Source: a virus. From it: a DNA stretch of 64,000 nucleotides. A program made the position numbers and the translations under genes. The DNA is taken from the IMG/VR virus record IMGVR_UViG_3300043313_000346, positions 1-64,000 of that record; one strand, given 5' to 3'. Below the pieces are notes generated by a model. It was not told the DNA's origin and made no database searches. It worked only from the letters and a program-made list of their open reading frames with translations. Shown here one piece after another: positions 8,965-34,508 of this stretch. Each line of letters starts with the position of its first letter. Within the stretch, counting starts at the first letter, position 1.

Positions 8965-9899
8965 GCGCCGATGATCATCTCAACATCCATCCGATCACCG
9001 ATGCCTGCCACGGCGAAGAGACTCTGACGATCTTCAACGCCAGCGACATGGGCAGCCTGTTCGGCGTCGGCTTCAAGTCGCTCGCCTATGTCTCGGCCAA
9101 GAAGCGCGGCATCGTTCCGCTGGCGTCCGACGATCCCGAGAATCCGCTGATGGAACGTGGGCTCGACTTCGAGGACGCCGCGCGCAAACGCGTGGCACGC
9201 AAATATCCCGCGTGGCAGATCACAAAATGCACCGATCATTATGTTGCGGATCGCATCGGCGCCAAGCCGGACAATCTGGTGATCGATCCGGCACGCGAGG
9301 GTGTCGGTGTGCTGGAGCTAAAGGTAACCGCCGAGCCGATCCACCGGCGCGAGTGGCTCGATGACACGCCACCGCTGAAATACTTGCTGCAGCTTTCGAC
9401 GCAGATGATGCTGGTGCCCGACTGCACATGGGGCGCGATCGGCGAACTGGTGGTCGGCCCGTTCACCTACGAGACCAACGTCTACATCGTCGAGCGCAAC
9501 CGCAGCGCCGAAATCCGGCTGCGCACCGCCGTTGCCGAGTTCTGGCAGACGTTCGACGCCGGCGGCGAACCGGCGATCGACTTCGAGCGCGACGGCGCGC
9601 TGATCGCGCTGATGTTCCCGCATGAAGTGCCGGGCAAGGTGATCGACCTGTCGTCCGACAATGCGATCCGCGATCTGTTGCAGCGTCGCGACATTCTCAA
9701 GGACACCGAGAAGGACGTCGTGAAGCGGCTGAAGGAATGCGAAAACGAGATCAAGGCCAAGCTCGGCGATGCCGAAGGCGCGATCGTGCCGGGCTGGCGC
9801 GTGACGCTCAAGACGCAGCACCGCAAAGGCTACACCGTCGAGCCGTCATCGTTTCGTGTGCTGCGCACCACGCGCCACGAGCAGGAGACGGCATCATGA
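8961..9899 (+). CDS. YqaJ-like (lambda exonuclease family) recombination exonuclease
   Basis: ASD, RGLDFE, GAKPD..LELK and YLLQLSTQM motifs; adjacent to RecT. Confidence 0.88.
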   Translation: MSADDHLNIHPITDACHGEETLTIFNASDMGSLFGVGFKSLAYVSAKKRGIVPLASDDPENPLMERGLDFEDAARKRVARKYPAWQITKCTDHYVADRIGAKPDNLVIDPAREGVGVLELKVTAEPIHRREWLDDTPPLKYLLQLSTQMMLVPDCTWGAIGELVVGPFTYETNVYIVERNRSAEIRLRTAVAEFWQTFDAGGEPAIDFERDGALIALMFPHEVPGKVIDLSSDNAIRDLLQRRDILKDTEKDVVKRLKECENEIKAKLGDAEGAIVPGWRVTLKTQHRKGYTVEPSSFRVLRTTRHEQETAS

Positions 9900-17487: not shown

Positions 17488-17676
17488 ATGGGTAAAGCGA
17501 ACAGCACATTCCGCCAGCGCGACGTTGTCGCAGCGATCCGCGCGGCCAAGCGCGCGGGACAAAATGTGACATCGTTTGAAATTCTCCCAAACGGCAATAT
17601 AAAGGTCCACGTCGGCGCTCCCGCCGATGATTCCTCCAACCAGAAAACGGATGCCGATTCATGGGACGACGTTTGA
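17488..17676 (+). CDS. Small protein preceding the integrase (possible recombination directionality factor)
   Basis: FRQRDVVAAIRAAKRAG..EI..G.I; overlaps the integrase start. Confidence 0.6.
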   Translation: MGKANSTFRQRDVVAAIRAAKRAGQNVTSFEILPNGNIKVHVGAPADDSSNQKTDADSWDDV

Positions 17677-18770
17677 AACCGGGGCTGCCACACGTTGACA
17701 GCTTCCCCGACAGGCACGGCAGGCGACGCTATTTCTTTCGGCTCAATCGACAATCGAAGCGCATCCCGCTTCCTGACATCGACGATCCGAATTTCATGGC
17801 AGCCTATGAGGCCGCGAAGGCCGGCACACCGACTCAACTGCCACCGAAGCCGCTCGGCGCCTCGAAGATCAGACCGGGCTCGGTCGCCGAAGCGATGGCC
17901 GAGTTCTATGCCGATGACACGTGGACGGCGCTCGCCGACACCAGCCGTTCGCAAATCAAGTGCTACCTTGAACCGTTCCGCGAAGAGCACGGGCACCGCA
18001 TGATGCGCGAGCTTGCGACGCTCAAGCTGCAGAAGATCGTCGACAAGCTCGGCCCGCACTCGCAGCGTCATCTGGTCGCCGGCATCCGCAAGCTCACCAA
18101 GTTCTGCCGGCGCGTCGGCTACCTCGACAAGACCACGCCCGATCCGGCGCGCGATCTGGAAATGAAGGACAAGCCGAAGACCGACGGATTCTATACGTGG
18201 GTTGAGAGCGATCACGTCGCCTTCAAGCGGCGATGGGGCAAGGACACGCGTCCGCGTCTGGTCTATCAACTGATCAACAACTTCGGCCTGCGTCTGTCGG
18301 ACGTTCGCAAGGTGGCACCGCGCCACATCGTCAGCGGCGTGATGACGATCAAGCCGCAGAAGACGCAGAACAGCAGCAAGGTCGACGTCGACATCGAGGT
18401 CTGGCCCGAGACGCTGGAGATCATCGCGGCGAACCGGCAGCGGCAATTCAAAAACGTGGTGATCCTCAACGACGCGAACCTGCCGTTCGTGTTGACCAAC
18501 ACCAACGCTGCGCCGCGACCGCTGAAGGTGAAGTCGCTCGGCATGGACATGCGCGAGGCTTACGACGCGGCGGGGCTCACGCACTGCACCAGCCACGGCA
18601 TCCGCAAGTCCGGTGCTGCGGTGGCGGCCGAGCAGGGCGCGACCGTCAACGAGTTGATGGCGATGTTCGGATGGGTCACGCCGAAGGAAGCGATGCGCTA
18701 CACCGAGAAGGCTGACCGCAAGCGCATGGCCGCAAGCGGCACAAAGAAACGCGCTGCGGCAGAAGGCTGA
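17661..18770 (+). CDS. int: Tyrosine integrase
   Basis: Catalytic R (GLRLSD), K (QKT), HGIRK, GW and RY residues; N-terminal arm-binding region. Confidence 0.93.
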   Translation: MGRRLKPGLPHVDSFPDRHGRRRYFFRLNRQSKRIPLPDIDDPNFMAAYEAAKAGTPTQLPPKPLGASKIRPGSVAEAMAEFYADDTWTALADTSRSQIKCYLEPFREEHGHRMMRELATLKLQKIVDKLGPHSQRHLVAGIRKLTKFCRRVGYLDKTTPDPARDLEMKDKPKTDGFYTWVESDHVAFKRRWGKDTRPRLVYQLINNFGLRLSDVRKVAPRHIVSGVMTIKPQKTQNSSKVDVDIEVWPETLEIIAANRQRQFKNVVILNDANLPFVLTNTNAAPRPLKVKSLGMDMREAYDAAGLTHCTSHGIRKSGAAVAAEQGATVNELMAMFGWVTPKEAMRYTEKADRKRMAASGTKKRAAAEG

Positions 18771-23267: not shown

Positions 23268-23549
23268 ATGCACACGAAAGATTTTCTCGCGCAGGAATTA
23301 CAGAAGGCCGGGCTCGACGAAATGGCTGCCAAGGCGGCTGATGGGTACTATCACGATTTCCTCTCGCCGCTCGACACACCGGAGCTTCAGCTATTGGCAG
23401 ACTTGCGCGCGATCGGCACGCCGGCAGCCGAAGCGCTCGCGGCTCGCCATCTCACCGGCGAGTTCGATGCGAGCAAGGAAGAGAGCGACGCATGGGCGCA
23501 GAGTCCCGAAGGACAGGACGCATTCGGCAAGCTGATGAGGGGCTCATGA
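23268..23549 (+). CDS. Hypothetical protein
   Basis: GGAG RBS. Confidence 0.65.
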   Translation: MHTKDFLAQELQKAGLDEMAAKAADGYYHDFLSPLDTPELQLLADLRAIGTPAAEALAARHLTGEFDASKEESDAWAQSPEGQDAFGKLMRGS

Positions 23550-23782
23550 TCTTCACCGGCAAAGTGACAGGTCTGGCCGAAGGCTCGACGTTCATTGTCC
23601 GGCGCTACTTTGACGGACGCCGCGACGGCTATCAGCACGGCTGGAGTCAAACAGGCTACCGTGTGACGCGTCGCTTGACGGACAGTGTCGAAGCCGAAAC
23701 CACGGTGATCGGCATGGGCGACGCGAGCCTGCCTATCTTTCAGGTCGTGGGTCCGGATCACAGCCGGCTGGCGCCGTGGTGA
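23546..23782 (+). CDS. Hypothetical protein
   Basis: ATGA overlap. Confidence 0.5.
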   Translation: MIFTGKVTGLAEGSTFIVRRYFDGRRDGYQHGWSQTGYRVTRRLTDSVEAETTVIGMGDASLPIFQVVGPDHSRLAPW

Positions 23783-23961
23783 TCAGAACCGGCGCCGACT
23801 GGCTCAAGCTGCCGCTCAAATTGCGACAACGCTGGTGGCGTGAGACGGACTACGGTAAACGCGAGCCGAGCGACGATCTGAAAAACGAGATCGAGAAAAT
23901 CCTTTCAGCGGTTGGGGCAATCCATGAAGCTGACCAAGCGCCAAAGCGAACTGGTGTGTGA
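23776..23961 (+). CDS. Hypothetical protein
   Basis: Coupled ORF. Confidence 0.5.
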   Translation: MVIRTGADWLKLPLKLRQRWWRETDYGKREPSDDLKNEIEKILSAVGAIHEADQAPKRTGV

Positions 23962-24184
23962 ACTGTCGAAGGGGCTGTCGAACAAGGCGATAGCGCGCAA
24001 CCTCAATGTCACCGAAGGCACGGTGAAAATGATGCTGCATCTTCTCTACGCCAAAACCGGCACCGCCAACCGCACCGCGCTCGTGATGCAGTGTGCGCTT
24101 GCCGAGTCCGGGAAAGCAGCCGAGCAAATCATTGCACTATCACCGGGCCAAGCAGCAACGGCCCCGGCTCGACTTGACCCGTAG
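23924..24184 (+). CDS. LuxR-type HTH regulator
   Basis: LTKRQSELV..GLSNKAIARNLNVTEGTVK..LYAKTG..NRT. Confidence 0.85.
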   Translation: MKLTKRQSELVCELSKGLSNKAIARNLNVTEGTVKMMLHLLYAKTGTANRTALVMQCALAESGKAAEQIIALSPGQAATAPARLDP

Positions 24185-24365
24185 CTTCGTAGCGCTGCAG
24201 CGCGGCGAACGTGGCGGCCGATGTTGCGAAGCGGATGAACTTCGTTTCCAGTTCGATCAGGGTGAAGTGCTCGAACAGATGCACGTCGATCACGTCACCC
24301 GGGAACGTGCGCTTGATTGACTCTTCGATCGGCTCGCAGCGATAGCGCTTCCCATACTCCGTCAT
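24129..24365 (-). CDS. Hypothetical protein (single reversed gene)
   Basis: GGAG RBS on the minus strand; operator-like boxes upstream. Confidence 0.5.
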   Translation of the reverse strand: MTEYGKRYRCEPIEESIKRTFPGDVIDVHLFEHFTLIELETKFIRFATSAATFAALQRYEATGQVEPGPLLLGPVIVQ

Positions 24366-24396
24366 GGCATGCTGACTCCGGTTGATGGCGCGATGC

Positions 24397-24437
24397 TGTC
24401 ACATGGTGTCGCAAGGCTATTATCACAAAATGTTACA
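24397..24437. promoter_or_regulatory. Two operator-like boxes
   Basis: TGTCACA-TGG-TGTCGCA and TATCACA-AAA-TGTTACA. Confidence 0.6.
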
Positions 24438-24669
24438 TCGGTGCCATACGGCTTTCTTGAATCGCACTCGCTCAAAACCGTTCAAGATGTCCAGCATCCA
24501 TCGCACCTAATGATTTTTTTCTGCGCGAGTTGTCGCTGTGCCACGCGGAGTCGCGTCGGCAAAAACGATCCGATTCCGAAAAGTTGAAAAGTCGATTTGC
24601 TATATTGCTCGTGTCGCAGTCAGAGAGCGACGGGCTGTTTGAAATGCAAAATCTGAAATGGAGACGAAC

Positions 24670-24930
24670 ATGGCGCAAGCCATCGACACGACGAACTATG
24701 TCTACCTTGCAATGACCGCGAACTTTTGGGCGTCCTCGAAAACGAGCGAGGAAGCTGCGGTGCGATCTCTTCGGGCTCAAGCCGGATCGTCACAGGTCAC
24801 GAAGTATGGATGGGTCACCTATCACATCCATCCTGACTTCGAGGTCTGCGGGATCAACGGCGACGTGATGACGCCGATCGGTCACAAGGCGATCAAGCTC
24901 ACCGACAAGATCAAACGCAAGGCGGCATAA
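24670..24930 (+). CDS. Hypothetical protein
   Basis: AAATGGAGA RBS; TGCTATATT extended -10-like element upstream. Confidence 0.65.
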   Translation: MAQAIDTTNYVYLAMTANFWASSKTSEEAAVRSLRAQAGSSQVTKYGWVTYHIHPDFEVCGINGDVMTPIGHKAIKLTDKIKRKAA

Positions 24931-24999
24931 AGCAAAGAGCCCGGGACGTGGACGCGTCCCGGGCCCCTCACTCGCAACGCAAGTACATGGAGACCTAAC

Positions 25000-25500
25000 A
25001 TGCAGACCATACCACTACGCGAACGACGCCACCAGCAAGCGCTCAAGGATCGCGCCCGGCTGGAGCGACAACGCGACGACACGCTCGACAAGCTCAGCCG
25101 CATCGCCGCCAAGCTCAAGGCGGTGCGCCGATCGGTCGAGCGCTACGAGCGAACGCCGATGCACCCGGTGAAGCCTGAGCCTCTCGCGGTGACGATCTTC
25201 CGCGAGATGGCAAAGGACGCGCCCGCTGCATCGGTGAACGTCGAGCCGCCGGCGCCGACACCAGCGCCGCAAGCAGCCGCGCCAGTGCCCGCGCCGGCGA
25301 GCGTCGACGATGACATGCCGGACTTCCTTCGGCGCTCGAAGCCCGATGCCGTCGGTGAAGCGATCGCCGCTGAGCAGGAAGCGAGGCGCAAGGCCAAGGC
25401 GCACGGGCGCATCGCGACGCTGAAGGCCAAGAAAAGCGGCGCCACCAAGCAGATGCCGCTCGAAGGCAAGGCCGCGCTCGCCGCGATCCGGGGCGGATAA
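25000..25500 (+). CDS. Hypothetical protein
   Basis: ATGGAGA RBS; coiled coil, Pro/Ala linker and DMPDFLRR motif. Confidence 0.7.
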   Translation: MQTIPLRERRHQQALKDRARLERQRDDTLDKLSRIAAKLKAVRRSVERYERTPMHPVKPEPLAVTIFREMAKDAPAASVNVEPPAPTPAPQAAAPVPAPASVDDDMPDFLRRSKPDAVGEAIAAEQEARRKAKAHGRIATLKAKKSGATKQMPLEGKAALAAIRGG

Positions 25501-25520
25501 AAAACCCGCGCTACCCCAGC

Positions 25521-25549
25521 AAAGCCGCCCTTCGGGGCGGCTTTTTCTT
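25521..25549 (+). terminator. Rho-independent terminator
   Basis: AAAGCCGCCC-TTCG-GGGCGGCTTTTT hairpin with U-tract. Confidence 0.85.
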
Positions 25550-25597
25550 GTGTGTTTTCAGCCGCTTGCCAAAGGCAAAAAAGATGTGGCTGGCCTC

Positions 25598-25626
25598 TTG
25601 TGTCACATCATGTGACATGCCATATA
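25598..25626 (+). promoter_or_regulatory. Sigma70-like promoter overlapped by a perfect operator palindrome
   Basis: TTGTGT-N17-CATATA, with TGTCACA-TCA-TGTGACA (25601-25617) overlapping the -35 box and spacer. Confidence 0.65.
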
Positions 25627-25629
25627 CGT

Positions 25630-26018
25630 CTCTCGTTACTTGATTGGTTGCTCCCCTGCGGTGCCTTCGGGCGCTCACTTGACGAGGGGGGTCCGGCACC
25701 AGACCCGGTTGATTGATGAGCATCGCTCTCACAGCCGCACCGCTCCCCTCAGAAGGATCGGCTCAGTCACTGCCCGGGGTACCAGTAAAATGGCCACACC
25801 AATTTCACTGCAGAACATGCGGACGCAACGCGTCGCGCGAACACTGCAGCCACCTCCCCGACGAATAGCGGCGCGCACGCACGATGCGCGCACGGTGCGA
25901 GGACAGACGACGCAATGGTCAAGAGCGCGAGGGCGCGGCCATGACGAAGACGACACGGTCAAGAGCACGAGGGTGCGACCCTGTTGATGCTGACACTGCG
26001 CGGCGCCACGCGCCGCAG
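25630..26018 (+). ncRNA. Candidate long structured leader RNA
   Basis: About 390 nt without a convincing ORF; multiple hairpins, including two tandem covarying hairpins at 25917-25940 and 25957-25980. Confidence 0.4.
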
Positions 26019-26114
26019 TGACCACTGAAGAGCGGCGACCAGACGAAGGCGCGCCGCTTCACAGTGTTCATGCACTCGCGCCTCGCAACGGCGCGCCAAC
26101 AAATGGAGAATGCA
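26019..26114 (+). repeat. Structured intergenic cassette element, copy A
   Basis: TGACCACTG..GAGCGGCG..CGCCGCTTC-ACAGTGTTCATGCACT-GCGCC-TCGCAAC-GGCGC..AAATGGAGA. Confidence 0.85.
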
Positions 26115-27140
26115 ATGACTGCTCTTCTGAACGAAGTTGAATGCACGATCGCGGAAGCGGCTGTGCTGCTCGAAAGGCAACTTGCCAAGGGCAAGCCCGT
26201 GATGATGTGGGGCGCGCCCGGGCTCGGCAAGTCGGCGATCGTCTGGCAGCTTGGCGCCAAGCAGGGCCGCAAGGTGATCGAGTATCGCGCCAACCTGCGC
26301 GAGCCGGTCGACGTGCGCGGCATCCCGGTGCCCGATCTGGTGAGCGGCACGACACGCTGGCTTGTGCCGGAAGACCTGCCGAACGCCGAGCGCGACGGCG
26401 AGTTCGGTTACCTGTTCCTCGACGAGATCAACACGGCGTCGCCGCAGATGATGGCGGTGCTGTTCGGTCTCGTGCTCGATCGGCGCATCGGTGACTACGT
26501 GCTGCCGGCTGGCTGGCAGATCATCGCTGCCGGCAACCGCGTGAGCGATCGCGCGGCGGCTCAACGGATGCCGACGGCGCTGCGCAACCGCTTCTCGCAT
26601 CTGACCGTACTGCCCGACGTCAACGCGTGGGCGGTGTGGGCGAACGCGAACGGTGTGGCGCCTGAGATGGTGGCGTTCGTCCGCTTGCGGCGCGAACTGA
26701 TCCACCGGATGCCGCGCGGCGATGAGAACGCATTCCCGACGCCGCGCTCGCTGACGGCGGCTGCGGAGTTCGTTGACGAGCCGAGCATCGCGCTGCGGCA
26801 AAAGCTGTTCGCCATGCACGTCGGCAATGACGTCGCCGGCGAGTTGAACGGCTTCATCGAGCTTTATCAATCGCTCGGTTCGCTCGACGACATCGTCGCC
26901 GATCCTGCCAATGCGAAGGTGCCCACCGAACCTTCGCAACTCTACGCGGTCTGCACCGGGCTCGCGCGTCTCGCGACGCGAAAGAACTGGTCGCAGATCG
27001 TGACCTATGCCGAGCGGCTGCGCGGCGAGCATCAAGTTCTGCTCGTGCATGACGCCGTGATGCGTGACCCGAAGCTGAAAGAGACGTCGGCCTATTCCAA
27101 GTGGGCCGTCGCCAATCAGGGCGCGCTGATGCAATCGTGA
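26115..27140 (+). CDS. MoxR-like AAA+ ATPase
   Basis: Walker A GAPGLGKS, Walker B LFLDEIN, AAGNR and ALRNRF. Confidence 0.9.
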   Translation: MTALLNEVECTIAEAAVLLERQLAKGKPVMMWGAPGLGKSAIVWQLGAKQGRKVIEYRANLREPVDVRGIPVPDLVSGTTRWLVPEDLPNAERDGEFGYLFLDEINTASPQMMAVLFGLVLDRRIGDYVLPAGWQIIAAGNRVSDRAAAQRMPTALRNRFSHLTVLPDVNAWAVWANANGVAPEMVAFVRLRRELIHRMPRGDENAFPTPRSLTAAAEFVDEPSIALRQKLFAMHVGNDVAGELNGFIELYQSLGSLDDIVADPANAKVPTEPSQLYAVCTGLARLATRKNWSQIVTYAERLRGEHQVLLVHDAVMRDPKLKETSAYSKWAVANQGALMQS

Positions 27141-27230
27141 GCAGTAAGGGCGGCGCCGTGTGCGCCGCCCCATAGTGCCCATGCACTGCGCCGTCGCAAC
27201 CGGCGCCAACCTTTCAAATGGAGATTCCCA
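27138..27230 (+). repeat. Structured intergenic cassette element, copy B
   Basis: Starts at the upstream TGA. GGGCGGCG..CGCCGCCC; AGTGC-CCAT-GCACT; GCGCCG-TCGCAAC-CGGCGC; AAATGGAGA. Confidence 0.85.
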
Positions 27231-28127
27231 ATGAACGCGAAAACGAAAGTGATCGCCTCGCCGCTGTCGCGGAAGGCAACGCTGGTGTCGGTCGACATCA
27301 GCCAATGGACGGCACGCAAGCTCGACAAGCGGGTGACGGACAAGGTCAACCGCGAGCACAACGCGGCCGACGACGCCGGCCGCTATCACAAGCTGCTGAT
27401 CGAGGCCAAGCGGCTCGAAGCGATCAACTCGCTGGTCGCGCAGGCACGCCGGCTGCACTACACGATGACGAAGCCGTGGGCCGACGAAGGCTTGCGCATC
27501 CTGCCGAACAAGCTGCACGAAAAGTTCGCCAGCGAGTTTCGCAAATTGAAGCGCGAGTTCGACGTGGCTGCTGATGACTTCTGCCGCGAATATCCGACGT
27601 TCATTGCCGAGCGCAAGAAAGCTCTCAACGGCTTGTTCAACGCGTCGGACTATCCGCCGGCCGATGAGATCAGGAGCAAGTTCCGGCTGACGACGAAGAC
27701 GTTCCCACTGCCTGAGTCGGATGACTTTCGCTCGGACGTGCTCGACGCGGACACGGTCGAAGACATCAAGCGCGAGCTTGCCGAGACGAACGAAGCGGTG
27801 CTTGCCGATGCGATGAAGCACACGGCCAAGCAGATCACCGAAGTCGTCGGGCACATGGCCGAGAAGCTGAAGGCGTACAAAAAGCCGGGCAAAGGTTCGC
27901 GCAGCTTTTTCTCGCACACGCTGGTCGAGAACGTGCGGCAGCTTGCCGAGCTTCTGCCGGCCTTCAATCTCGACAACGATCCGGCGCTCGACGCGATCGC
28001 CGATCGCATCAACAAAGAACTTTGCGTCGAAGACGCAGAGACACTGAGACACGACGACAACGCGAGGAAGTCGGTGGCCAAGAGCGCCGACGACATCCTG
28101 CGCGATGTCGAAAGCCTGCTCGGCTGA
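27231..28127 (+). CDS. DUF3150-like protein
   Basis: LVSVDISQWTARKLD and DYPPADEIRSKF; lies between the AAA and vWA genes. Confidence 0.65.
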   Translation: MNAKTKVIASPLSRKATLVSVDISQWTARKLDKRVTDKVNREHNAADDAGRYHKLLIEAKRLEAINSLVAQARRLHYTMTKPWADEGLRILPNKLHEKFASEFRKLKREFDVAADDFCREYPTFIAERKKALNGLFNASDYPPADEIRSKFRLTTKTFPLPESDDFRSDVLDADTVEDIKRELAETNEAVLADAMKHTAKQITEVVGHMAEKLKAYKKPGKGSRSFFSHTLVENVRQLAELLPAFNLDNDPALDAIADRINKELCVEDAETLRHDDNARKSVAKSADDILRDVESLLG

Positions 28128-28174
28128 GAGCGCGCCCGGCCGCAACCCGGGCGCTTTTCAAAATGGAGATGACA
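28125..28174 (+). repeat. Structured intergenic cassette element, copy C (last hairpin and RBS only)
   Basis: GCGCCCGG-CCGCAAC-CCGGGCGC..AAATGGAGA. Confidence 0.8.
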
Positions 28175-29614
28175 ATGCAGACGATCGACACGGTGACGGC
28201 ACAAGCCGCCGAGCGCGTGAGCAAGGCGCGCCAAGAACTGATCCTTGAGCGCACGTTCTACGGCGTGCTGGTCAGCCAAGTCGAGGCCAAGCCGTCGCGC
28301 GACTTCCCGACGATGGCGACGAACGGCCGGACGCACTTTTTCAATCCGGACTTCATCGCCTCTCTGTCGCAGGTCGAAGTGCTCGGCGTGCAGGCGCACG
28401 AGACCGAGCACGATGCGCGCCGCCATCACACGCGGCGCGGTAACCGCGATCCGCAAGAATGGAACGTGTGCTGCGATCTCGCGATCAACCCTGACCTGAT
28501 CCGCGCGGGCTTCAAGCTGCCGGAAGGCGCCCTGCTCGACTGGCGCTTCGAGGGCATGTCAGCCGAAGACATCTATCGGACGCGCGAGCTTGAGCGGCAG
28601 CCGCCGCAACAGCCGCAGCCCGAATCGGACAAATCGGACAAAGCGGACAAAGCGGACAAATCGGACAAATCGGACAAATCGGACGGAACCGATGGAACCG
28701 ACGGCGACGATGCCGACGGCGACGAAGGCGCTGGCGAGGGCGCTGGTGAAGCCGGCGAAGAGCCGGGCGACACTGGCACCGGCGAAGGCGCCGGCGACGC
28801 TGGCGAGCCCGGTGAGGGCACCGGCGAGGGCTCTGGCGAGGGCGAAGGCTCGGACGCTGGCAGCGATGCCGGCGAGGCCAAGCCGGGGCCGTCTTCGGGC
28901 GATCCCGGCCGCTGCGGCGAAGTGCTCGACGCGGCGGTTGATGCCGCCGAGCGGGCCGACGTCGACGCCAAATGGGAACGTGTCGTGCGCGAGGCCGCAA
29001 GCCTCGCACGCAAGCGCGGCGACGCTCCCGGGCACGTGTCGCGCGAGATCGAGCGGAACGATCATCCCCCGCAAGACTGGCGCGAGACTTTGCGTGCCTT
29101 TTTCGACGGCGGCGCGGTGACCACCGAAACGTGGTCGCGTCCGAACCGGCGCTTCATCGGCGGCGGGCTCTATCTGCCCGGCCGCGAGCGTGACGGCGTC
29201 AACCGCGTCGCCATGCTGGTCGACACGTCCGGTTCGATGGATGATGTCGCGCTTGCGGCGATCGGCGTCGAAGTGCAAGCGGCGCTCGATGAGAACATCA
29301 TCGACGAGCTTGTCGTGATCTACGGCGACACGCGGGTGACGCGCGTCGACACGTATCGCGGCGGCGACGAGATCGAGTTCGATCCGCGTGGCGGTGGCGG
29401 CACCCGGTTGATGCCGCTGTTCGATCACGTGGCGAACGAAGTCGATGCTTCGCTGATCGTGTGCTTCACCGACGGTGAGCACGAGATCACCAGCGCGCAC
29501 GCTGAGCCGGCTTGCCCGGTCCTGTTTGCGATCACCGGCTTCCCGCAGGACGTTCGCCACTACGTCGCGAATGCACCGTGGGGCGCCACCGCGATCGACG
29601 TCGGATCGCACTGA
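28175..29614 (+). CDS. DUF2201-like metallopeptidase + vWA domain protein
   Basis: TMATNG, HETEH (HExxH), WNVCCDLAIN, acidic Gly-rich linker, DTSGSM MIDAS motif, GGGGT and FTDG. Confidence 0.88.
   Translation: MQTIDTVTAQAAERVSKARQELILERTFYGVLVSQVEAKPSRDFPTMATNGRTHFFNPDFIASLSQVEVLGVQAHETEHDARRHHTRRGNRDPQEWNVCCDLAINPDLIRAGFKLPEGALLDWRFEGMSAEDIYRTRELERQPPQQPQPESDKSDKADKADKSDKSDKSDGTDGTDGDDADGDEGAGEGAGEAGEEPGDTGTGEGAGDAGEPGEGTGEGSGEGEGSDAGSDAGEAKPGPSSGDPGRCGEVLDAAVDAAERADVDAKWERVVREAASLARKRGDAPGHVSREIERNDHPPQDWRETLRAFFDGGAVTTETWSRPNRRFIGGGLYLPGRERDGVNRVAMLVDTSGSMDDVALAAIGVEVQAALDENIIDELVVIYGDTRVTRVDTYRGGDEIEFDPRGGGGTRLMPLFDHVANEVDASLIVCFTDGEHEITSAHAEPACPVLFAITGFPQDVRHYVANAPWGATAIDVGSH
28625..28685 (+). 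repeat. 9-bp in-frame tandem repeat (T/G)CGGACAAA
   Basis: About 6.5 copies, encoding SDK/ADK. Confidence 0.85.
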
Positions 29615-29705
29615 CCACTGCAGGGCGGCGTCGCAAGGCGCCGCCTCACAGTGTTCATGACGAACACCCGGCCCGCAACGCCGGATCACAAATGGAGTAA
29701 TGACA
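29612..29705 (+). repeat. Structured intergenic cassette element, copy D
   Basis: TGACCACTG-CA-GGGCGGCG..CGCCGCCT-CACAGTGTTC-ATGAC-GAACAC-CCGGC-CCGCAAC-GCCGG..AAATGGAG. Confidence 0.88.
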
Positions 29706-30104
29706 ATGAAAAAGCTTGGTGGAGTTCTGATCATCATCGTCGGCCTGATCTGGCTGAGCAACGGCAAGCCCGCCGACACGACGCCGGCATCGCCGTGCAA
29801 ATCCGATTGGACAAAATGCACCGACAACGCCGACATGGCGAACAACTTCGGCGGCTGGTCCGGCGTGCAATATGACTGCAAAAAACAGGCGGAAGAACTC
29901 GCCAAATACGGCACGCCAGAATGGCCGTGGTTCGCCTTCTCATCCTTCCGCCCCGGCAGCAACTACAGCACCGGCACCGTCACGGTGATCGAGCCCGATG
30001 CCAAATTCCAGAACGGCTTCGGCGCGATGGTGCGCTCGCGCGTGGTCTGTGAATACGATCTGCGCAGCAAGAAGGTGACCAACGTCGACATCAGCGCGCG
30101 ATGA
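29706..30104 (+). CDS. Exported/membrane-anchored Cys-containing protein
   Basis: MKK plus hydrophobic N-terminus; four Cys; QNGFGAMVR motif. Confidence 0.75.
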   Translation: MKKLGGVLIIIVGLIWLSNGKPADTTPASPCKSDWTKCTDNADMANNFGGWSGVQYDCKKQAEELAKYGTPEWPWFAFSSFRPGSNYSTGTVTVIEPDAKFQNGFGAMVRSRVVCEYDLRSKKVTNVDISAR

Positions 30105-30193
30105 GCACCACCGAGCGGCGCTTCGGCGCCGTTCCATAGTGCCCACGACGGACACTGCCGGCGCAACCGGCGCATCAAATGGAGACTTTCAAA
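30102..30193 (+). repeat. Structured intergenic cassette element, copy E
   Basis: Starts at TGA. GAGCGGCGC-TTCG-GCGCCGTTC; AGTGCCC..GGACACT; GCCGG-CGCAA-CCGGC; AAATGGAGA. Confidence 0.85.
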
Positions 30194-30403
30194 ATGGCGA
30201 ATCTCTACACCTACGAATGCCGCGCTTGCGGCTTCGCTCAAGTCTTCCGCGAAGACAACAGCATGCATTGCCCGCACTGCCGCGCGTGGCCGATGCGCGA
30301 GGCGCTGCCGAGCGTCGACGCGATGCTCGCGACGATCGACACCGTGATCGGCTGCGATGATACCGAGATGGCCGACAAGGCAACCCGGAGGGCAGCACGA
30401 TGA
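30194..30403 (+). CDS. Zinc-ribbon protein
   Basis: YTYECRACG...CPHC. Confidence 0.7.
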   Translation: MANLYTYECRACGFAQVFREDNSMHCPHCRAWPMREALPSVDAMLATIDTVIGCDDTEMADKATRRAAR

Positions 30404-30567
30404 GCCGGAAGACCGAAAGCAAGAAGGCCGCGCGCGTGCTGCGCGAAGTCTTCGACGCCAAGCTGCCAGTGCCCGGCGTGACCACGCGTGATCGCGACGC
30501 GGCGCTGTGGCTGGCGATCACGATCCTTGAAGCCCGCGCGCAAGATGCAGACAGTGAGGAAGGATAA
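30400..30567 (+). CDS. Hypothetical protein (55 aa)
   Basis: GGAGG RBS and ATGA overlap. Confidence 0.55.
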   Translation: MSRKTESKKAARVLREVFDAKLPVPGVTTRDRDAALWLAITILEARAQDADSEEG

Positions 30568-30570
30568 AAA

Positions 30571-30987
30571 ATGAAACATCTGACCAAGGCACAGGTAGCA
30601 ACGCGCGACGAACTGATCGCCGCGCTGCGCGGGAAAGACAAGGCGATCGATGATGCCATCATCGAGATCAACAACAAGATCGACGAAGTCAACGTGCTGA
30701 TCGAAGAGAACCTCAAGCCCGCGATCGACGACTACAACGGTGCGCTCGGCGATCTCGAAGAACTGCGCAATGAGATCGTCGGCCAGATGGACGACTATGT
30801 TAACGCGCGCTCTGAGAAGTGGAGCAACAGCGATGCCGGCGCGAACTATTCGTCGTGGAAGGACGAATGGGAAGGCATCGACATGAGCCCGCTCGACGAC
30901 ATCGAGCCGCTTGCACATCTCGAAGCATCGGACCCGGCACACGCCAACGAGTTCGAAGCGCTGTCGAGCGAGGTTCAAGAAGACTGA
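30571..30987 (+). CDS. Acidic helical protein
   Basis: D/E-rich; RSEKWSNSDAG motif. Confidence 0.7.
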   Translation: MKHLTKAQVATRDELIAALRGKDKAIDDAIIEINNKIDEVNVLIEENLKPAIDDYNGALGDLEELRNEIVGQMDDYVNARSEKWSNSDAGANYSSWKDEWEGIDMSPLDDIEPLAHLEASDPAHANEFEALSSEVQED

Positions 30988-31086
30988 GTGCTGCCAGAGC
31001 GGCGCGGGACAACTCGCGCCGCTTCACAGTGTTCATGCTGAGCACTCCCGCCGCAACGCGGGCAAAAATCCAAATGGAGAAAAACG
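30985..31086 (+). repeat. Structured intergenic cassette element, copy F
   Basis: Starts at TGA. GAGCGGCGCG..CGCGCCGCTT; AGTGTTC-ATGCT-GAGCACT; CCCGC-CGCAAC-GCGGG; AAATGGAGA. Confidence 0.88.
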
Positions 31087-31434
31087 ATGAAGTATCTACT
31101 GCCTCTTGCCGTCGCGCTTGCAATGACATCCGGCGCGAATGCCGGCTACACCGCCGGCGAGCTATTGAAGGAATGCAAGGCCGACTCGAAGAAAGCGGCT
31201 TGCGCGACCTATGTGACGGCTACATGGGATACATTCGAGGCACTGGCTTGGACTCATAAAGAGCTTGTCATTGCCAACATCTGCATCCCGCACGGCATCA
31301 CGGTCGTGCCGGCCGAGATGATCAAGCTCGCTGAAACGCGGATTCAGGAACAGAAGGCGACGCCGGATATGTCCGCTGCGGCGGTGCTGCTTGCTGGCCT
31401 GCGATCCAAGTTCAATTGTTTCGATCGACGCTGA
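31087..31434 (+). CDS. Rap1a/Tai-family immunity-like exported protein
   Basis: Signal peptide, then TAGELLKEC..CATYV..ICIP..AAAVLLAGLRSKFNC four-Cys pattern typical of Rap1a. Confidence 0.7.
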   Translation: MKYLLPLAVALAMTSGANAGYTAGELLKECKADSKKAACATYVTATWDTFEALAWTHKELVIANICIPHGITVVPAEMIKLAETRIQEQKATPDMSAAAVLLAGLRSKFNCFDRR

Positions 31435-31510
31435 TCACTGCAGAGCGGTGCCAAATCTGGCGCCGCTTTTCATGCCGGTCGCAACCCGGCTCAACAAATG
31501 GAGAACTGAA
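31432..31510 (+). repeat. Structured intergenic cassette element, copy G (middle hairpin missing)
   Basis: TGATCACTGCAGAGCGGTGCC..GGCGCCGCTT; GCCGG-TCGCAAC-CCGGC; AAATGGAGA. Confidence 0.85.
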
Positions 31511-32164
31511 ATGAAGACGCTGAAATGCGTCGCGCTCGCTGCCGCACTGCTCGCCAGTGCTTCGAGCGCGCACGCTGCAATGAAGGCCTACCAGACATCC
31601 GGCCTTTGGTCCGCGAATGCCGGCACGGCCAACGACGGCACGCCGATGTGCTCGATGAGCATCCAAGACAAGGAACGCGCGGCCTTCATCAAGTGGCAGG
31701 CGGGAAGCGAAAATCTGTTCGTGCAGGTTTATAAGTCAAGCTGGAATATCCCGATCGGCACAACGATGCCGATGACGATCCAGTTTGATCGCGCCGAGCC
31801 GTTCAAGGGGACCGCGACATCGATTCCCGGTGGCAACGGGCAGATGATCGAAGTGTCTCTCAAAAACGAGGAAGGCAGCACGATCCCCCGGTCGTTCATG
31901 GAGGAATTCGCATCGGCGGTGAAGATGTACTTCATCTTTCCCGGCGGCAACGAAACGCTATGGTCCGCACCGATGGAAGGCTCGCGCATCATCGCCGGAT
32001 CGTTTGCGAAATGCGTGATCGACTATTCCAAATATGCGACGCCCAAGACGCAGCCGCACAAGGGCGGTGGCGGCGGCGGGGCGACGCAGCCGCACAACAG
32101 CACCCCGGCTGAGCCGGTGGCGCCACCACCACTGAGCGGCAGCGCCAAACGCAACGACATCTAA
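31511..32164 (+). CDS. Exported protein
   Basis: Sec signal peptide ending AHA; beta-rich domain with two Cys; Pro/Gly-rich tail. Confidence 0.75.
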   Translation: MKTLKCVALAAALLASASSAHAAMKAYQTSGLWSANAGTANDGTPMCSMSIQDKERAAFIKWQAGSENLFVQVYKSSWNIPIGTTMPMTIQFDRAEPFKGTATSIPGGNGQMIEVSLKNEEGSTIPRSFMEEFASAVKMYFIFPGGNETLWSAPMEGSRIIAGSFAKCVIDYSKYATPKTQPHKGGGGGGATQPHNSTPAEPVAPPPLSGSAKRNDI

Positions 32165-32167
32165 AGG

Positions 32168-32267
32168 TGACCACTGCAGAGCGGCGTGCCACAAGCGCGC
32201 CGCTCGACAGTGTTCATGCGAACACTCGCCCGCCGCAACCGGGCGCAAAAAAATGGAGAACCTTACA
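32168..32267 (+). repeat. Structured intergenic cassette element, copy H
   Basis: TGACCACTGCAGAGCGGCG..CGCCGCTC-GACAGTGTTC-ATGC-GAACACT-CGCCCG-CCGCAAC-CGGGCG..AAATGGAGA. Confidence 0.88.
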
Positions 32268-32498
32268 ATGACGATAAAGTCCCTCATCCTGACGGCGGCG
32301 CTCTTGCTCGCCGGCCCGCACATGCTGCGCGCCGATGACGCCAAGGGCGCGGCCGATGACGCATCCCGCGAATGGAGTCCGATCGAGGTTGTCTACTTCT
32401 GCAATCTTCCTCTGGCCGAAGCCAAGATCGAGAACTGCACGGCAGCGCAGCCGAAGCGACAGCGACAAGCGCGCTTGCGCAAGAAGGTGATCCGATGA
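32268..32498 (+). CDS. Small exported protein
   Basis: Signal-peptide-like N-terminus and two Cys. Confidence 0.6.
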   Translation: MTIKSLILTAALLLAGPHMLRADDAKGAADDASREWSPIEVVYFCNLPLAEAKIENCTAAQPKRQRQARLRKKVIR

Positions 32499-32905
32499 AA
32501 CCCACCAAGCGCGAATGCGGCGGCTGCACGCTGTGCTGCAAGTTGTTGGCTGTGCCGGCGATCGAGAAGCCGCAAGACAAGTGGTGCAAGCACTGCACCA
32601 TCGGTGTCGGCTGCGCGATCAACGGCAGCGAGCAGCGACCAGAGGCTTGCGGCCTGTTCGATTGCCTCTGGCTGCAAGGCTACGGCGACGACAACATGCG
32701 GCCCGACAAATCGAAGGTCGTCATGGGCATGACGTCGGACGGCAAAAGCCTCGTGCTCTATGTCGATCCGTCGCGGCCGGAAGCGTTCCGCGAACCGGCG
32801 ATCGACAAGACGATCGACAAGCTGATCGCGAACGGCATGAAGGTGTTCGTCGTATGCGGCGACAAGCGCCGGATGATCTCAAACCAAAATGGAGAACCGA
32901 CATGA
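32495..32905 (+). CDS. CxxCxxCC (YkgJ-like) cysteine-cluster protein
   Basis: CGGCTLCCK..C..C..C..RPEAC..C. Confidence 0.78.
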   Translation: MKPTKRECGGCTLCCKLLAVPAIEKPQDKWCKHCTIGVGCAINGSEQRPEACGLFDCLWLQGYGDDNMRPDKSKVVMGMTSDGKSLVLYVDPSRPEAFREPAIDKTIDKLIANGMKVFVVCGDKRRMISNQNGEPT

Positions 32906-33147
32906 CGAACGAAGAGAAAGACCTGCTGCGCCGAATCGCAACGGTGCTGCAACAGCCGCGCAATCGCTTCGGCTGCATTCAAGGCGGGGCGTCGCACGCG
33001 CGCGACGCTGCGCCGGCTGATCTGGTGAAGCGCCTGCCGCACGGCGGCGTCGACGCTGCTGATCAGTGCGCCATGCTCCTGCAGTCGCTGATCGGCGATC
33101 CGGTGATGTCGATCGGCGACATGGGCAACATGAGGACTCGGGCATGA
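32902..33147 (+). CDS. Hypothetical protein
   Basis: AAAATGGAGA RBS and ATGA overlap. Confidence 0.6.
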   Translation: MTNEEKDLLRRIATVLQQPRNRFGCIQGGASHARDAAPADLVKRLPHGGVDAADQCAMLLQSLIGDPVMSIGDMGNMRTRA

Positions 33148-33803
33148 CCGACATTTGGCCCGTGATCCATCTCTCAACCGTCGACAAGCTCACGGTCGAG
33201 AACGCCAGCATGGCCGCGCGCTGCGGCTGTCCCGGCGTGTTTCTCATCTCGATGAGCGGCTACGACGACGCGGTCGATCCTGCGGCGGCGCTGATCCGGC
33301 GCGAAGTGCCGGGGCTCAAGATCGGCATCAACCTGCTGACCAAGTCGCCATCGTGGGCGGTGTGCCACAGCATGAACCAAGGCTATGACGCGACATGGTC
33401 CGACTTTGCGTGGCAGGGCACCGGCGTTGATGCCTACATCGAGAAGGCCGGCGTCGATCACAAGTTCTTCGCCGCCGTCGCGTTCAAGGGCGAGACGCAC
33501 AACGAGCCGGACCCGCACGCGAGCGCGCGCGAGGCCGTGGCGCGCGGATTTATTCCGATGACGAGCGGCAGCGGCACCGGCGTCACCGCGCCGTTCGAGA
33601 AGATCGAGCGGCTGCGCAAGGCGATCGGTCCCGCCGCGCCTCTCGCGATGAGCGGCGTGCATCCACCGCACGCCGATCGGTTGGTGCCGCTGGTGACGCA
33701 CTTCCTCGTCGCCACGTGCATCAGCCGGGACTTCTACACGTTCGATGAAGCGATGCTGCAATACTTGATCGGCAAGACTGCCGGCGCTTCTGTTGTTGCC
33801 TGA
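33144..33803 (+). CDS. BtpA/SgcQ-like TIM-barrel protein
   Basis: PVIH, GVFLI, IGINLL, VAFK and TSGSGTG motifs. Confidence 0.6.
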   Translation: MTDIWPVIHLSTVDKLTVENASMAARCGCPGVFLISMSGYDDAVDPAAALIRREVPGLKIGINLLTKSPSWAVCHSMNQGYDATWSDFAWQGTGVDAYIEKAGVDHKFFAAVAFKGETHNEPDPHASAREAVARGFIPMTSGSGTGVTAPFEKIERLRKAIGPAAPLAMSGVHPPHADRLVPLVTHFLVATCISRDFYTFDEAMLQYLIGKTAGASVVA

Positions 33804-33810
33804 ATCAAAA

Positions 33811-33846
33811 TCCCCGGCCGAGCTTCACGCTCGACCGGGGACTCTT
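33811..33846 (+). terminator. Hairpin, probable terminator
   Basis: TCCCCGGCCGAGC-TTCAC-GCTCGACCGGGGA, with only a weak U-tract. Confidence 0.5.
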
Positions 33847-34023
33847 GCTCGTGCGATCGCAACTTCGGCAACGAGCCTCGCGATCGGACCAAATGGAGAA
33901 AGCCCCGATTCGCGAGTGGGTGTCATTTAAGCGCACTTGGAACTTTTTTCAACTTTTGGCCGCTTCGAAGGCACGTGCGGTCTTCATCGCTTTTGCTTCA
34001 ATAGCTTGGGGCTGGAAGCATCA

Positions 34024-34040
34024 TGTAACAAGTTGTGACA
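34024..34040. promoter_or_regulatory. Operator-like box
   Basis: TGTAACA-AGT-TGTGACA upstream of the first XRE gene. Confidence 0.6.
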
Positions 34041-34108
34041 AATTTTTGCGAACGCCCAACGGAGGTTAGAATTTCGACAGGCAAAAAATACAGTTTCCCA
34101 AGGCGGCT

Positions 34109-34333
34109 ATGCGAAGACGAACGGCTCAATTTGTTAGACTCGCGCGCGCTAAGCTCAAGATGACACAAGCAGAATTTGCGAAACGGCTTGGGCTCGAACG
34201 TCGCAGCATCTTGCGATACGAGAAGGGCGAACCGTTGCCACCGACGGTGTACTTCGCGATCAAATTTCTGGTCGCGCGTGACAGGCTCAACAAGCAACGA
34301 GCCAAAGAGCGGATCAACAAAAGAGCCAATTAA
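34109..34333 (+). CDS. XRE-family HTH regulator (paralog 1)
   Basis: RAKLKMTQAEFAKRLGLERRSILRYEKG. Confidence 0.85.
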   Translation: MRRRTAQFVRLARAKLKMTQAEFAKRLGLERRSILRYEKGEPLPPTVYFAIKFLVARDRLNKQRAKERINKRAN

Positions 34334-34508
34334 AGCGCTCTGCCCTCCCCTTCTCTAGCTTCCTTCCCCTCCCCAAAGCTGTGCAAGAACTTGCACACCT
34401 TCAAAGGTGTTGCGGTGCGACCTTGCGCACTCACGCGGCTTAGTGACATCTTATGACTCGCAAATGCCGGGAGCCCCCGGAAAAATACCTGCGATGAAAA
34501 GAGGCGAG

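Follow-up and report, generated by a model that had tools for sequence, protein, structure and literature searches.

The early genes of phage T7 are separated by RNase III sites, hairpins that recur between cistrons, each spanning about two helical turns, with an internal loop between the upper and the lower stem. Cleavage at such a site would leave a 3' hairpin on the upstream message; re-pairing of the 3' arm with a conserved strand farther downstream is not known from the T7 sites. In leader attenuators of the trp type, strand 2 pairs with either of its neighbors (1:2 or 2:3), and a ribosome on strand 1 frees strand 2 for strand 3. The PeSL cassettes of T4-type phages (PMC2839356, PMC4122927) are described as short conserved regulatory modules, each a sigma-70 promoter plus a terminator stem-loop, that lie between small accessory genes and at the boundaries where related phages differ by insertion, deletion or replacement; the abstracts of the two papers mention no alternative pairing. 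The SAS/ESAS sequences of Cluster K mycobacteriophages (PMC3203893) form an asymmetric conserved block with a ribosome-binding site before the start codons of some non-structural genes, in a single orientation. According to the sections of that paper that describe them, an imperfect inverted repeat whose spacer varies lies ahead of roughly half of the SAS copies, and their function is not known. Translational coupling by unfolding, as at the MS2 coat/lysis and E. coli rpmI-rplT junctions, relies on an upstream ribosome that remodels the junction RNA and thereby uncovers the downstream ribosome-binding site; at rpmI-rplT it operates across +52 nt (PMC12548453).

Here we describe a repeated intergenic spacer of about 90 bases from an uncultured soil phage (IMG/VR record IMGVR_UViG_3300043313_000346, positions 1 to 64,000; this stretch of 64,000 nucleotides is the window) which, as judged from comparison of its copies, is a real, previously undescribed structured RNA. 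At the RNA level, the element forms a module of about 85 to 95 nt that lies between the cistrons of one phage operon and recurs at gene junctions. From 5' to 3' it comprises a stop codon (inside the strand X5 or just before it), the very stable hairpin P1, the central strand Xc, the strand X3, the hairpin P3 with a conserved GCA in its loop, and a standard Shine-Dalgarno block. X5 is nearly a copy of X3, and each is complementary to Xc, so the RNA has two exclusive folds: a long fold, L, the default, in which X5:Xc (helix P0) stacks on P1, and a short fold, R, in which Xc pairs with X3 (helix P2). The first-pass annotation had proposed two mutually exclusive folds at 29612-29667; the sequence is as it described, both pairings were recovered, and the support is now stronger than could be seen there. 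The window holds an array of eight copies, A to H, and the parts are given here for copy D.

29612-29697, + strand: copy D, in which the central strand Xc pairs with X5 or X3
29612..29620, + strand: X5, TGACCACTG, the 5' strand of P0 (P0 columns 1-9 of alignment A5)
29623..29646, + strand: P1, GGGCGGCGTC/GCAA/GGCGCCGCCT, a 10-bp GC-rich hairpin with a GCAA tetraloop
29649..29657, + strand: Xc, CAGTGTTCA, common to both folds as the partner of X5 (L) or X3 (R)
29662..29667, + strand: X3, GAACAC, the 3' partner of Xc in P2
29668..29684, + strand: P3, CCGGC/CCGCAAC/GCCGG, a variable stem whose loop has the conserved GCA
29690-29697, + strand: Shine-Dalgarno block, AAATGGAG, conserved
29706-29708, + strand: ATG start codon of the next gene (the whole Shine-Dalgarno-to-ATG feature is 29690..29708)

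The stop codon of a DUF2201/vWA gene lies at 29612-29614, within X5. A CA/CA internal loop (29621-29622 and 29647-29648) flanks P1, and TGAC separates Xc from X3 (P2 loop, 29657-29661). The minimum free energy (MFE) fold of the copy D RNA is the long bulged hairpin with the UGA included, at -31 kcal/mol and z = -6.2 (200 shuffles). The block AAATGGAG occurs 11 times on the + strand within 24.6-33.9 kb, compared with a chance expectation of about 1.1 per window on both strands. The other copies are as follows.

26019..26108, + strand: copy A, the array head, with a complete core and no convincing gene upstream
27138..27223, + strand: copy B, X5 UGAGCAGUA, Xc UAGUGCCCA, X3 GCACU; isoenergetic folds (-38.1 versus -38.0)
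28125..28168, + strand: copy C, P3 alone, terminator-like
30102..30184, + strand: copy E, X5 UGAGCAC, Xc GUGCCCA, X3 GGACACU, with a UUCG tetraloop in P1
30985..31079, + strand: copy F, with P0 resting on three G.U pairs and the short fold ahead by 1.9 kcal/mol
31432..31503, + strand: copy G, degenerate, with X5, P1 and P3 present and Xc and X3 lost; a weak covariance-model match (26 bits)
32168..32258, + strand: copy H, with the true stop TAA 6 nt 5' of a retained UGA

MFE folding gives the long form for copies A, D and H, the three in which that annotation had noted the long pairing; in copies E and F the downstream pairing (Xc:X3) is already present in the MFE folds. The examples of P2 covariation in the first-pass annotation are correct and belong to copies D (GTGTTC/GAACAC), F (AGTGTTC/GAGCACT, with a U.G pair) and B (AGTGC/GCACT). 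It had assigned the GCACT pairing to copy A; P2 does exist there, but it consists only of AGUG/CACU plus a U.G pair, and the GCACT pairing is that of copy B. All 18 distinct copies from the window and from three relatives can adopt either fold, with ddG (long minus short) from -4.7 to +2.3 kcal/mol.

To what extent are both folds maintained in related phages? A covariance model, R1, was built solely on the long fold (X5:Xc plus P1), with P2 excluded, and its search returned 74 matches at E<1e-5 (69 distinct ones), spread over the window and 28 related loci (29 phage contigs). All of the 74 matches lie on the gene strand. Among the 69 distinct copies, 87.4% of the P0 cells are paired, and changes on both sides were seen in 9/9 pairs. 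P2 (columns 77-83 in A5) is paired in 91.8% of cells, versus 26-45% with the partners slid; all 7 of its pairs have both-side changes, in 40 cells versus 9.9±2.5 in shuffles, which ignore the relatedness among copies. There are 55 distinct X5/Xc/X3 triplets, and three-way changes occur at the Xc/X5/X3 columns 68/2/77 (C,G,G, n=53; G,C,C, n=3), 65/5/80 (G,C,C, n=53; A,U,U, n=2; C,G,G, n=1) and 62/8/83 (A,U,U, n=30; G,C,C, n=5). Selection on both exclusive pairings is supported at the family level by this alignment. Family-wide, ddG (L-R) has a mean of -2.0 and a standard deviation of 2.3 kcal/mol and lies within ±2 in 51% of the copies; the energy model predicts that the long fold is favored, by about 2 kcal/mol on average. 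The family combines strand-specific conservation of two helices, their mutual exclusivity, near-equal energies and a consistently placed stop codon. Two exclusive helices with compensatory and three-way changes are rare outside riboswitches and attenuators. The remaining parts are conserved to different degrees: P3 was found in 61/69 copies with 37 distinct stem arms and with GCA in 49/67 loops, and the spacing between the conserved blocks varies by 5-15 nt. The P3 loop can be written YNNGCA, and the loop sequences UGCA and UUGCAA are self-complementary. A second repeat family of unrelated sequence (X5 CGUUUCG, Xc CGAAGCGCC, X3 GGUGNCUUC) follows the same three-strand logic; its column 53 is common to both helices, and the P0 partner pair there is C-G in 7 copies and U-A in 6. 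By its sequence, this second family appears to be an independent replicate of the three-strand logic.

The mismatches bear on whether the element works as RNA or as DNA. P1 is paired in 97.9% of cells family-wide and often carries UUCG, UACG or GCAA tetraloops, and its excess of G.U over A.C (60 versus 5) points to RNA on the + strand. In P0 and P2, A.C is as common as G.U (35 versus 29 and 22 versus 20, respectively), so that these helices, unlike P1, carry no strand signal. This balance could be taken to favor a DNA-level hairpin or cruciform, formed in single-stranded or supercoiled DNA and recognized, in an attC-like or REP-like manner, by a recombinase, transposase or replication protein. 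The core is indeed palindromic, because of which the model also matches the opposite strand weakly (18-34 bits), and the phage has a tyrosine integrase gene at 17661-18770. We nevertheless consider a DNA-level role highly improbable. Besides the 60:5 ratio in P1, 74/74 strong matches are co-oriented with the genes, the + strand of copy D folds better than its opposite strand (z of -6.2 versus -3.0), the UNCG and GNRA tetraloops are of the RNA type, and the element always ends in the Shine-Dalgarno block and a start codon. On reading, no attC-type core sites were found in the elements; against the integron attC pattern (RYYYAAC ... GTTRRRY), the loop YCGCAAC misfits RYYYAAC and has no GTTRRRY partner. 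There is no adjacent IntI integrase, the gene at 17661-18770 being the sole one of the integrase family and about 8 kb off. Host repeats such as REP, ERIC and Correia lie scattered over a bacterial chromosome in both orientations; the matches in phage contigs are all co-oriented, and the bacterial-genome pattern matches inspected among those listed look like chance.

Set beside the PeSL cassettes as described, the element is likewise a short conserved module between small accessory genes, and it too sits where related phages differ. Unlike the PeSL promoter and terminator stem-loop, the elements have no promoter-like site or U-tract, and what they conserve instead is a stop codon, a two-state RNA core and a Shine-Dalgarno block. 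A promoter scan of 23500-34500 called two sites, both near 24400 and neither within an element. A promoter reading was dropped since the elements lack sigma-70 sites, keep no fixed spacing between their blocks and have covarying stems; inspection also led us to drop sigma-54 as a reading of the TTGCA loops, there being no GG-N10-GC register. No terminator-like site was called in any element, P1 being followed by UUCACAGU or CCAUAGUG, and the GC-rich hairpin plus U-tract of an intrinsic terminator or attenuator was not seen, with no U run after L or R. A T run is seen only after P3 of copy C (TTTTCA; TTTTTT in relatives). The terminator/attenuator reading was dropped for want of U-tracts, and the earlier suggestion of a coupling to termination is not supported, as neither fold is followed by a U-tract in the elements.

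The element shares with SAS the asymmetric conserved block with a ribosome-binding site before start codons, used by a subset of non-structural genes in a single orientation. However, the 13-bp SAS sequence GGGATAGGAGCCC is unrelated to AAATGGAG, and SAS, as characterized in the relevant parts of PMC3203893, has neither three-strand alternative pairing nor an embedded stop codon; the element is an analogue, not a member. With the trp-type attenuators it has the same three-strand logic in common, but it lacks a strand 4 or terminator and a leader peptide with regulatory codons, and it sits between full-length genes.

What could switch the junction from one fold to the other? The element UGA is the true stop of an upstream open reading frame (ORF) of at least 60 codons in 42/69 copies, inside X5, and in 19 further copies the true stop lies 3-9 nt upstream; an ORF of at least this length precedes 62 copies, and in 61 of them a stop codon falls 0-9 nt from the start of X5. 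The reach of the ribosome and the extent of its mRNA channel are well established, from which we infer that a ribosome terminating in X5 or 3-9 nt before it would cover X5. The best explanation, which we hold tentatively and with less than even confidence, is a translation-coupled two-state junction. L would form first during RNA synthesis and would be slightly more stable than R; a ribosome finishing the upstream gene would then sit on X5, and Xc would re-pair with X3. Each junction would thereby record whether its upstream gene is translated. We infer further that any output would probably act on the fate of the downstream message, by processing or 5'-end protection, rather than on access to the ribosome-binding site.

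The placement of the stop codons is consistent with the ribosome trigger proposed in the first-pass annotation, but head-of-array copies (copy A, L056:3827 and L058:3126 in related contigs) keep a complete core with no consistent upstream ORF, as does the copy at L058:6872, which lies in a non-coding stretch. No consistent small ORF precedes the head-of-array copies, and a leader peptide was dropped as an explanation for them. Genome compaction alone would equally set an intergenic element flush against the stop codon. A selenocysteine or readthrough signal after the UGA was rejected by reasoning, since the length differences between copies are not multiples of three and the next gene is in a different frame. 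As in known cases of translational coupling, an upstream ribosome would remodel the junction RNA. In contrast to those cases, which hide the downstream ribosome-binding site, the Shine-Dalgarno block and AUG here are equally open in both predicted folds, and the stop-to-start gap of about 85-95 nt is unlike the known ones. The predictions do not support the proposed coupling to initiation: in 18 copies, forcing L rather than R made no difference to the accessibility of the Shine-Dalgarno block, the AUG and the initiation region; sequestration of the Shine-Dalgarno block by either fold was dropped on these grounds.

It is possible, though doubtful, that the element is a portable ribosome-actuated two-state junction that senses termination, passes its state to the message of the next cistron and doubles as a cassette swap point. 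If so, the portable junction would be a new class of cis-acting RNA switch with the translating ribosome as its ligand, passing on its state via message stability, processing or use, and found among uncultured soil phages; up to eight copies of the element occur in one operon. With the ribosome as the trigger, shuffled accessory genes would be kept under one simple translation-linked control.

The head-of-array copies bring in an equally live rival to the ribosome switch, RNase III-type processing followed by refolding, although taken singly we rate it as somewhat unlikely. Here the long fold would be a site for a double-strand endonuclease of the T7 RNase III type, and the two folds would be consecutive steps rather than the states of a reversible switch. 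Once cut in the CA/CA internal loop, the upstream message would keep P1 at its 3' end as a protective hairpin, and Xc would be free to pair with X3, capping the 5' end of the downstream message. The element has the same repeated intercistronic hairpin with internal loop as the T7 sites; cleavage at it is our proposal. The long fold is a quasi-continuous helix, with a P0 of about 9 bp, a 2x2 internal loop and a P1 of 9-12 bp, as expected of a T7-type site, whose helix runs to about 20 bp or more on the two sides of its internal loop. The 3' side of that loop is conserved (CA in 45/69 and GA in 17/69 copies), P2 starts 1-4 nt past it, and P1 bears extra-stable tetraloops. Processing would explain the core in the head-of-array copies that lack an upstream ORF, which the ribosome trigger does not, and it needs no effect on the ribosome-binding site, none being predicted. 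However, a cleavage site requires neither near-equal energies of L and R nor a stop codon inside X5. If the element is a processing site, it would amount to a T7-like system for cutting operons, with the hairpin that caps the 5' end already built in.

Another explanation is a standard junction without switching, which would insulate the cassettes and whose repeats would be the points at which cassettes recombine and are shuffled. Placed directly behind the stop, a stable hairpin would block ribosome scanning and exonucleases, a uniform 5' leader would give uniform initiation, and the second pairing would merely back up or tune the structure. The breaks in homology between the phage and its relatives do fall in or at elements. 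Homology to L056 extends from 26050, within copy A, to 29708, just past copy D; that to L058 covers 26050-29614; L055 has one additional ORF-plus-element unit between two copies; and contigs from other soil samples break off or diverge at 30131-30162 and at 31050. These soil contigs come from four runs and are fragmentary, and they mostly break or diverge at elements. The DNA of the phage is present in 12 studies, and a look-up of RNA runs containing this stretch gave none. The phage also encodes RecT and a YqaJ-like exonuclease, and structure just 3' of a stop codon reduces translational coupling according to a review (PMC12548453), a point that we count for the static junction. Recombination, however, needs sequence identity, not compensatory pairing, and a static junction leaves unexplained both why X3 tracks Xc through three-way changes and why an unrelated repeat family follows the same logic. 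We consider it quite unlikely.

No relative of the element was found outside these phages in the collections that were searched. A megablast of 10 kb against phages and plasmids gave no match, nor did a blastn of the element against phages, and no cultured phage carries it. Rfam had no match at the gathering score in the whole window; at E<=1, 25500-32400 gave only terminator-like matches (25500-25553) and two stray weak ones outside the elements. R1 found nothing in three bacterial genomes (150 candidates scored per genome) or near cellular DUF2201 homologues of Burkholderiales genomes (20 loci, about 70 kb). A protein scan of bacterial genomes gave no close relative, 401 Burkholderiales genomes have only distant DUF2201 homologues, and the best protein match to the gene adjoining the element is 33% identical.

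With this element, uncultured soil phages contribute a well-supported family of structured RNA. Whether switch or processing site, the module is compact and self-contained and recurs beside unrelated genes, and therefore it lends itself to easy testing in reporters and may be useful in synthetic operons, as an insulating or a coupling part. In these phages it also marks the sites of gene-cassette exchange. Among the cassette cargo are exported proteins and a candidate Rap1a-like immunity protein.

Copy D, one of eight repeat elements (A to H) at gene junctions of the window, is built from three strands that can pair in two ways and two further hairpins, ahead of a Shine-Dalgarno (SD) block and a start codon.

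Elements of copy D and its junction
29612-29620, + strand: 5' strand (X5), TGACCACTG, containing the stop codon of the DUF2201 gene
29621-29622, + strand: internal loop, 5' side, CA
29623-29646, + strand: hairpin P1, GGGCGGCGTC/GCAA/GGCGCCGCCT, a 10-bp stem with a GCAA loop
29647-29648, + strand: internal loop, 3' side, CA
29649-29657, + strand: central strand (Xc), CAGTGTTCA
29658-29661, + strand: linker, TGAC
29662-29667, + strand: 3' strand (X3), GAACAC
29668-29684, + strand: hairpin P3, CCGGC/CCGCAAC/GCCGG
29690-29697, + strand: SD block, AAATGGAG
29706, + strand: start codon, ATG

Between 24.6 and 33.9 kb, the + strand carries 11 copies of the block AAATGGAG, against about 1 expected per window (both strands), and 8 of the 11 have a related element (A to H) on the 5' side.

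As RNA, the 56 nt at 29612-29667 of copy D are predicted to form a long hairpin (-31 kcal/mol, z = -6.2; opposite strand, z = -3.0), in which X5:Xc (helix P0) is stacked on P1. Xc alternatively pairs with X3 (helix P2), giving a short fold. The first-pass annotation had described two mutually exclusive folds, and sequence and folding of the window copies agree with it in all checkable details. The folds lie only 0.1 kcal/mol apart in copy B, and the best fold of copies E and F already has the downstream pairing. Both are open to each of 18 distinct copies, taken from the window and from three related contigs, with a difference (long minus short) of -4.7 to +2.3 kcal/mol. Because the long fold has a mean advantage of 2.0 kcal/mol (sd 2.3; within ±2 kcal/mol in 51% of 68 copies), we regard it as the ground state. 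It would form first in transcription, and the short fold should appear once X5 is removed from pairing.

Pattern and protein scans of viral contigs yielded four related phage contigs with the element, and a metagenome scan that used an alignment of the neighboring protein added 31 loci (48 to 95% protein identity). A covariance model built on P0 and P1 only, with Xc:X3 left out, matched the window and 28 related loci 74 times (69 distinct) at an E-value of <1e-5, always on the gene strand, and had no match in 20 loci (~70 kb) around cellular DUF2201 homologues in Burkholderiales genomes. In the 69-copy alignment, P0 is paired in 87.4% of cells, with both-side changes in 9/9 pairs; the whole modeled structure (P0 plus P1) reaches 92.6%, versus 33 to 50% with slid partners. 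P2, absent from the model, is paired in 91.8% of cells, versus 26 to 45% with slid partners, and all seven of its pairs show both-side changes, with 40 doubly changed cells versus 9.9 ± 2.5 in shuffles that ignore relatedness. Its pair counts and pair types, the robust measures, exceed all 500 shuffles; none of the covariation statistics is corrected for phylogeny. X3 was aligned by sequence alone and a few rows are visibly misaligned; these lower the apparent pairing, which makes the P2 values conservative.

Where the central base changes, both partners change too, and this three-way change is the clearest evidence for both folds beyond chance. It is seen at columns 68/2/77 (C,G,G, n = 53; G,C,C, n = 3), 65/5/80 (G,C,C, n = 53; A,U,U, n = 2; C,G,G, n = 1), 64/6/81 (U,A,A, n = 55; C,G,G, n = 2), and 62/8/83 (A,U,U, n = 30; G,C,C, n = 5). 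The earlier claim that P2 covaries between copies is borne out. There are 55 distinct triplets, including the following.

Whole-strand triplets (X5 / Xc / X3)
UGAAUGAAA / UUGCAUUCA / GAAUGCC
ACAAUACGU / ACGUGUUGC / CAACACG
UGAUUACUA / UAGUGAUCUA / GAUCACC

A second intercistronic repeat family, unrelated in sequence (X5, CGUUUCG; Xc, ACGAAGCGCC; X3, GGUGNCUUC; SD, ACGGAGC), co-occurs in contigs with the window-type element.

Loci of the second family in related contigs
L057: 3036-11222
L218: 2139-2225 and 3698-3780
L212: 3597-3680
L227: 389-460

Its best fold is X5:Xc in some copies and Xc:X3 in others. X5:Xc is paired in all cells (13 copies), and at column 53, common to both helices, the pair with X5 goes from C-G (n = 7) to U-A (n = 6). 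That two repeats of unrelated sequence share this two-fold logic speaks against a historical accident in one of them.

The sequences point to an element that acts as RNA on the gene strand. P1 holds 60 G.U versus 5 A.C cells, which supports this reading, and frequently carries UUCG, UACG, or GCAA loops; strong matches to the model are all co-oriented with genes, and each element spans the interval from stop codon to SD block. In P0 and P2, G.U and A.C cells are balanced, and these helices by themselves do not indicate a strand; mismatches that recur in certain of their columns may tune the balance of the two folds. The P3 loops (e.g., 29673-29679) are family-wide CUUGCA, CUAGCA, or YCGCAAC, on 37 different stems; since UGCA, CUAG, and UUGCAA are self-complementary, it is conceivable that the P3 hairpins within a transcript contact each other through their loops. 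In the related contig L058, a small conserved hairpin directly before the start codon (GGAAAU-GGAG-AUUUCC; 3200-3232, 4325-4356, 7285-7313, and 7925-7950) has the SD sequence GGAG as its loop.

What frees Xc for X3 could be a terminating ribosome that removes X5 from pairing, a tentative reading of the sequences that we rank slightly above cleavage by an endonuclease. Given what is established about the ribosome's mRNA channel, a ribosome with this stop codon in the A site would cover X5. In 42 of the 69 copies, an upstream ORF of 60 codons or more ends at the element's own UGA, and in 19 more the actual stop lies 3 to 9 nt upstream of it. The translational coupling proposed in the first-pass annotation fits the stop codon at or near X5 in these 61 copies. 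Two results speak against simple coupling: predicted SD and AUG accessibility stayed the same in 18 copies whichever fold was forced, and the terminator scan found no terminator after either fold. Head-of-array copies keep the core, and a consistent upstream ORF was not found there. These copies would be accounted for by an endonuclease, the slightly less favored agent in our ranking, that cuts the long fold at the internal loop, leaving P1 on the upstream RNA and freeing Xc for P2. With roughly two helical turns and a conserved internal loop (3' side CA or GA in 62/69 copies), the long fold fits such a substrate, and the cut would put P2 a few nucleotides from the new 5' end; however, both the energy balance of the two folds and the embedded stop codon are left unexplained.

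Rfam gave no match to the element at gathering score over the whole window, where weaker matches at 25500-32400 lie outside the elements, and nucleotide and protein searches against phages and plasmids found no cultured relative. Rejected candidates are PeSL (the element has neither promoter nor terminator in our scans), SAS/ESAS (the sequence differs), an attC site, an attenuator (no terminator), and a classical unfolding-type coupling signal (SD/AUG accessibility is equal in both folds). By analogy, the element resembles a three-strand attenuator core, but between full genes, or alternatively a T7-type processing site plus refolding strand, and we would class it among phage intercistronic regulatory modules. 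As read from its sequence, it appears to be a two-fold module, without match in Rfam or cultured phage searches, repeated between phage genes.

The source record is a 76.9-kb virus from a soil metagenome (63% G+C). The phage looks temperate; it carries an integrase-family gene (17661-18770) and also encodes RecT and a YqaJ-like exonuclease. Homology to relatives breaks at the elements: that to L056 and L058 begins at 26050, within copy A, and ends at copy D (29708 or 29614), and at 30131-30162 and 31050, contigs of other soil samples end or depart from the window sequence. The related contig L055 has one additional ORF-plus-element unit, with an extra small ORF between F-like and E-like elements (8793-9215) in place of the window's lone copy F (30985-31079); this is gain or loss of one cassette between repeats. 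Gene shuffling by recombination between repeats was shown for PeSL cassettes of T4-type phages (PMC2839356 and PMC4122927). Given RecT and YqaJ, repeat-repeat recombination would be a natural route here as well and could explain why the element is repeated, but it leaves the tracking of Xc by X3 unexplained.

The array lies in a co-oriented gene run (26.0-32.3 kb) behind a strong intrinsic terminator (25521-25544, upstream of the run) and a leader of ~390 nt. Directly past the terminator, a promoter-like TTGTGT-N17-CATATA (25598-25626) overlaps a perfect palindrome (25601-25617, TGTCACAT-C-ATGTGACA), a likely operator of the cassette operon. The leader contains tandem hairpins (25917-25980, GGTCAAGAGCGCGAGGGCGCGGCC and GGTCAAGAGCACGAGGGTGCGACC) with compensatory differences and an identical GAGG loop, which might be a site for an antiterminator or other RNA-binding protein. 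Adjoining copy A on its 5' side, a mini-hairpin (25993-26019, CACTGCGCGGCG-CCAC-GCGCCGCAGTG) looks like a fused X5/P1/Xc unit, its last T shared with the TGA of copy A. A degenerate junction (24930-24992) before the gene at 25000 has a GC hairpin (GCCCGGGACG-TGGA-CGCGTCCCGGGC) followed by CTCACTCGCAACGC and ATGGAG, without P3 stem or X5/Xc/X3 core. The run opens with genes for an AAA_5 ATPase, a DUF3150 protein, and a DUF2201 vWA/metallopeptidase protein; later genes are small, several with signal-peptide-like starts (cassettes starting at 29706, 31511, and 32268). One small exported protein (31087-31434) is a borderline match (27.3 bits; cut-off, 27.7) to Rap1a, a type VI secretion immunity family. 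Elsewhere, two large structural genes on the minus strand, probably for tail fibers, contain long runs with a 9-nt period (44419-44640 and 61134-61768), as is typical of collagen-like Gly-X-Y repeats.
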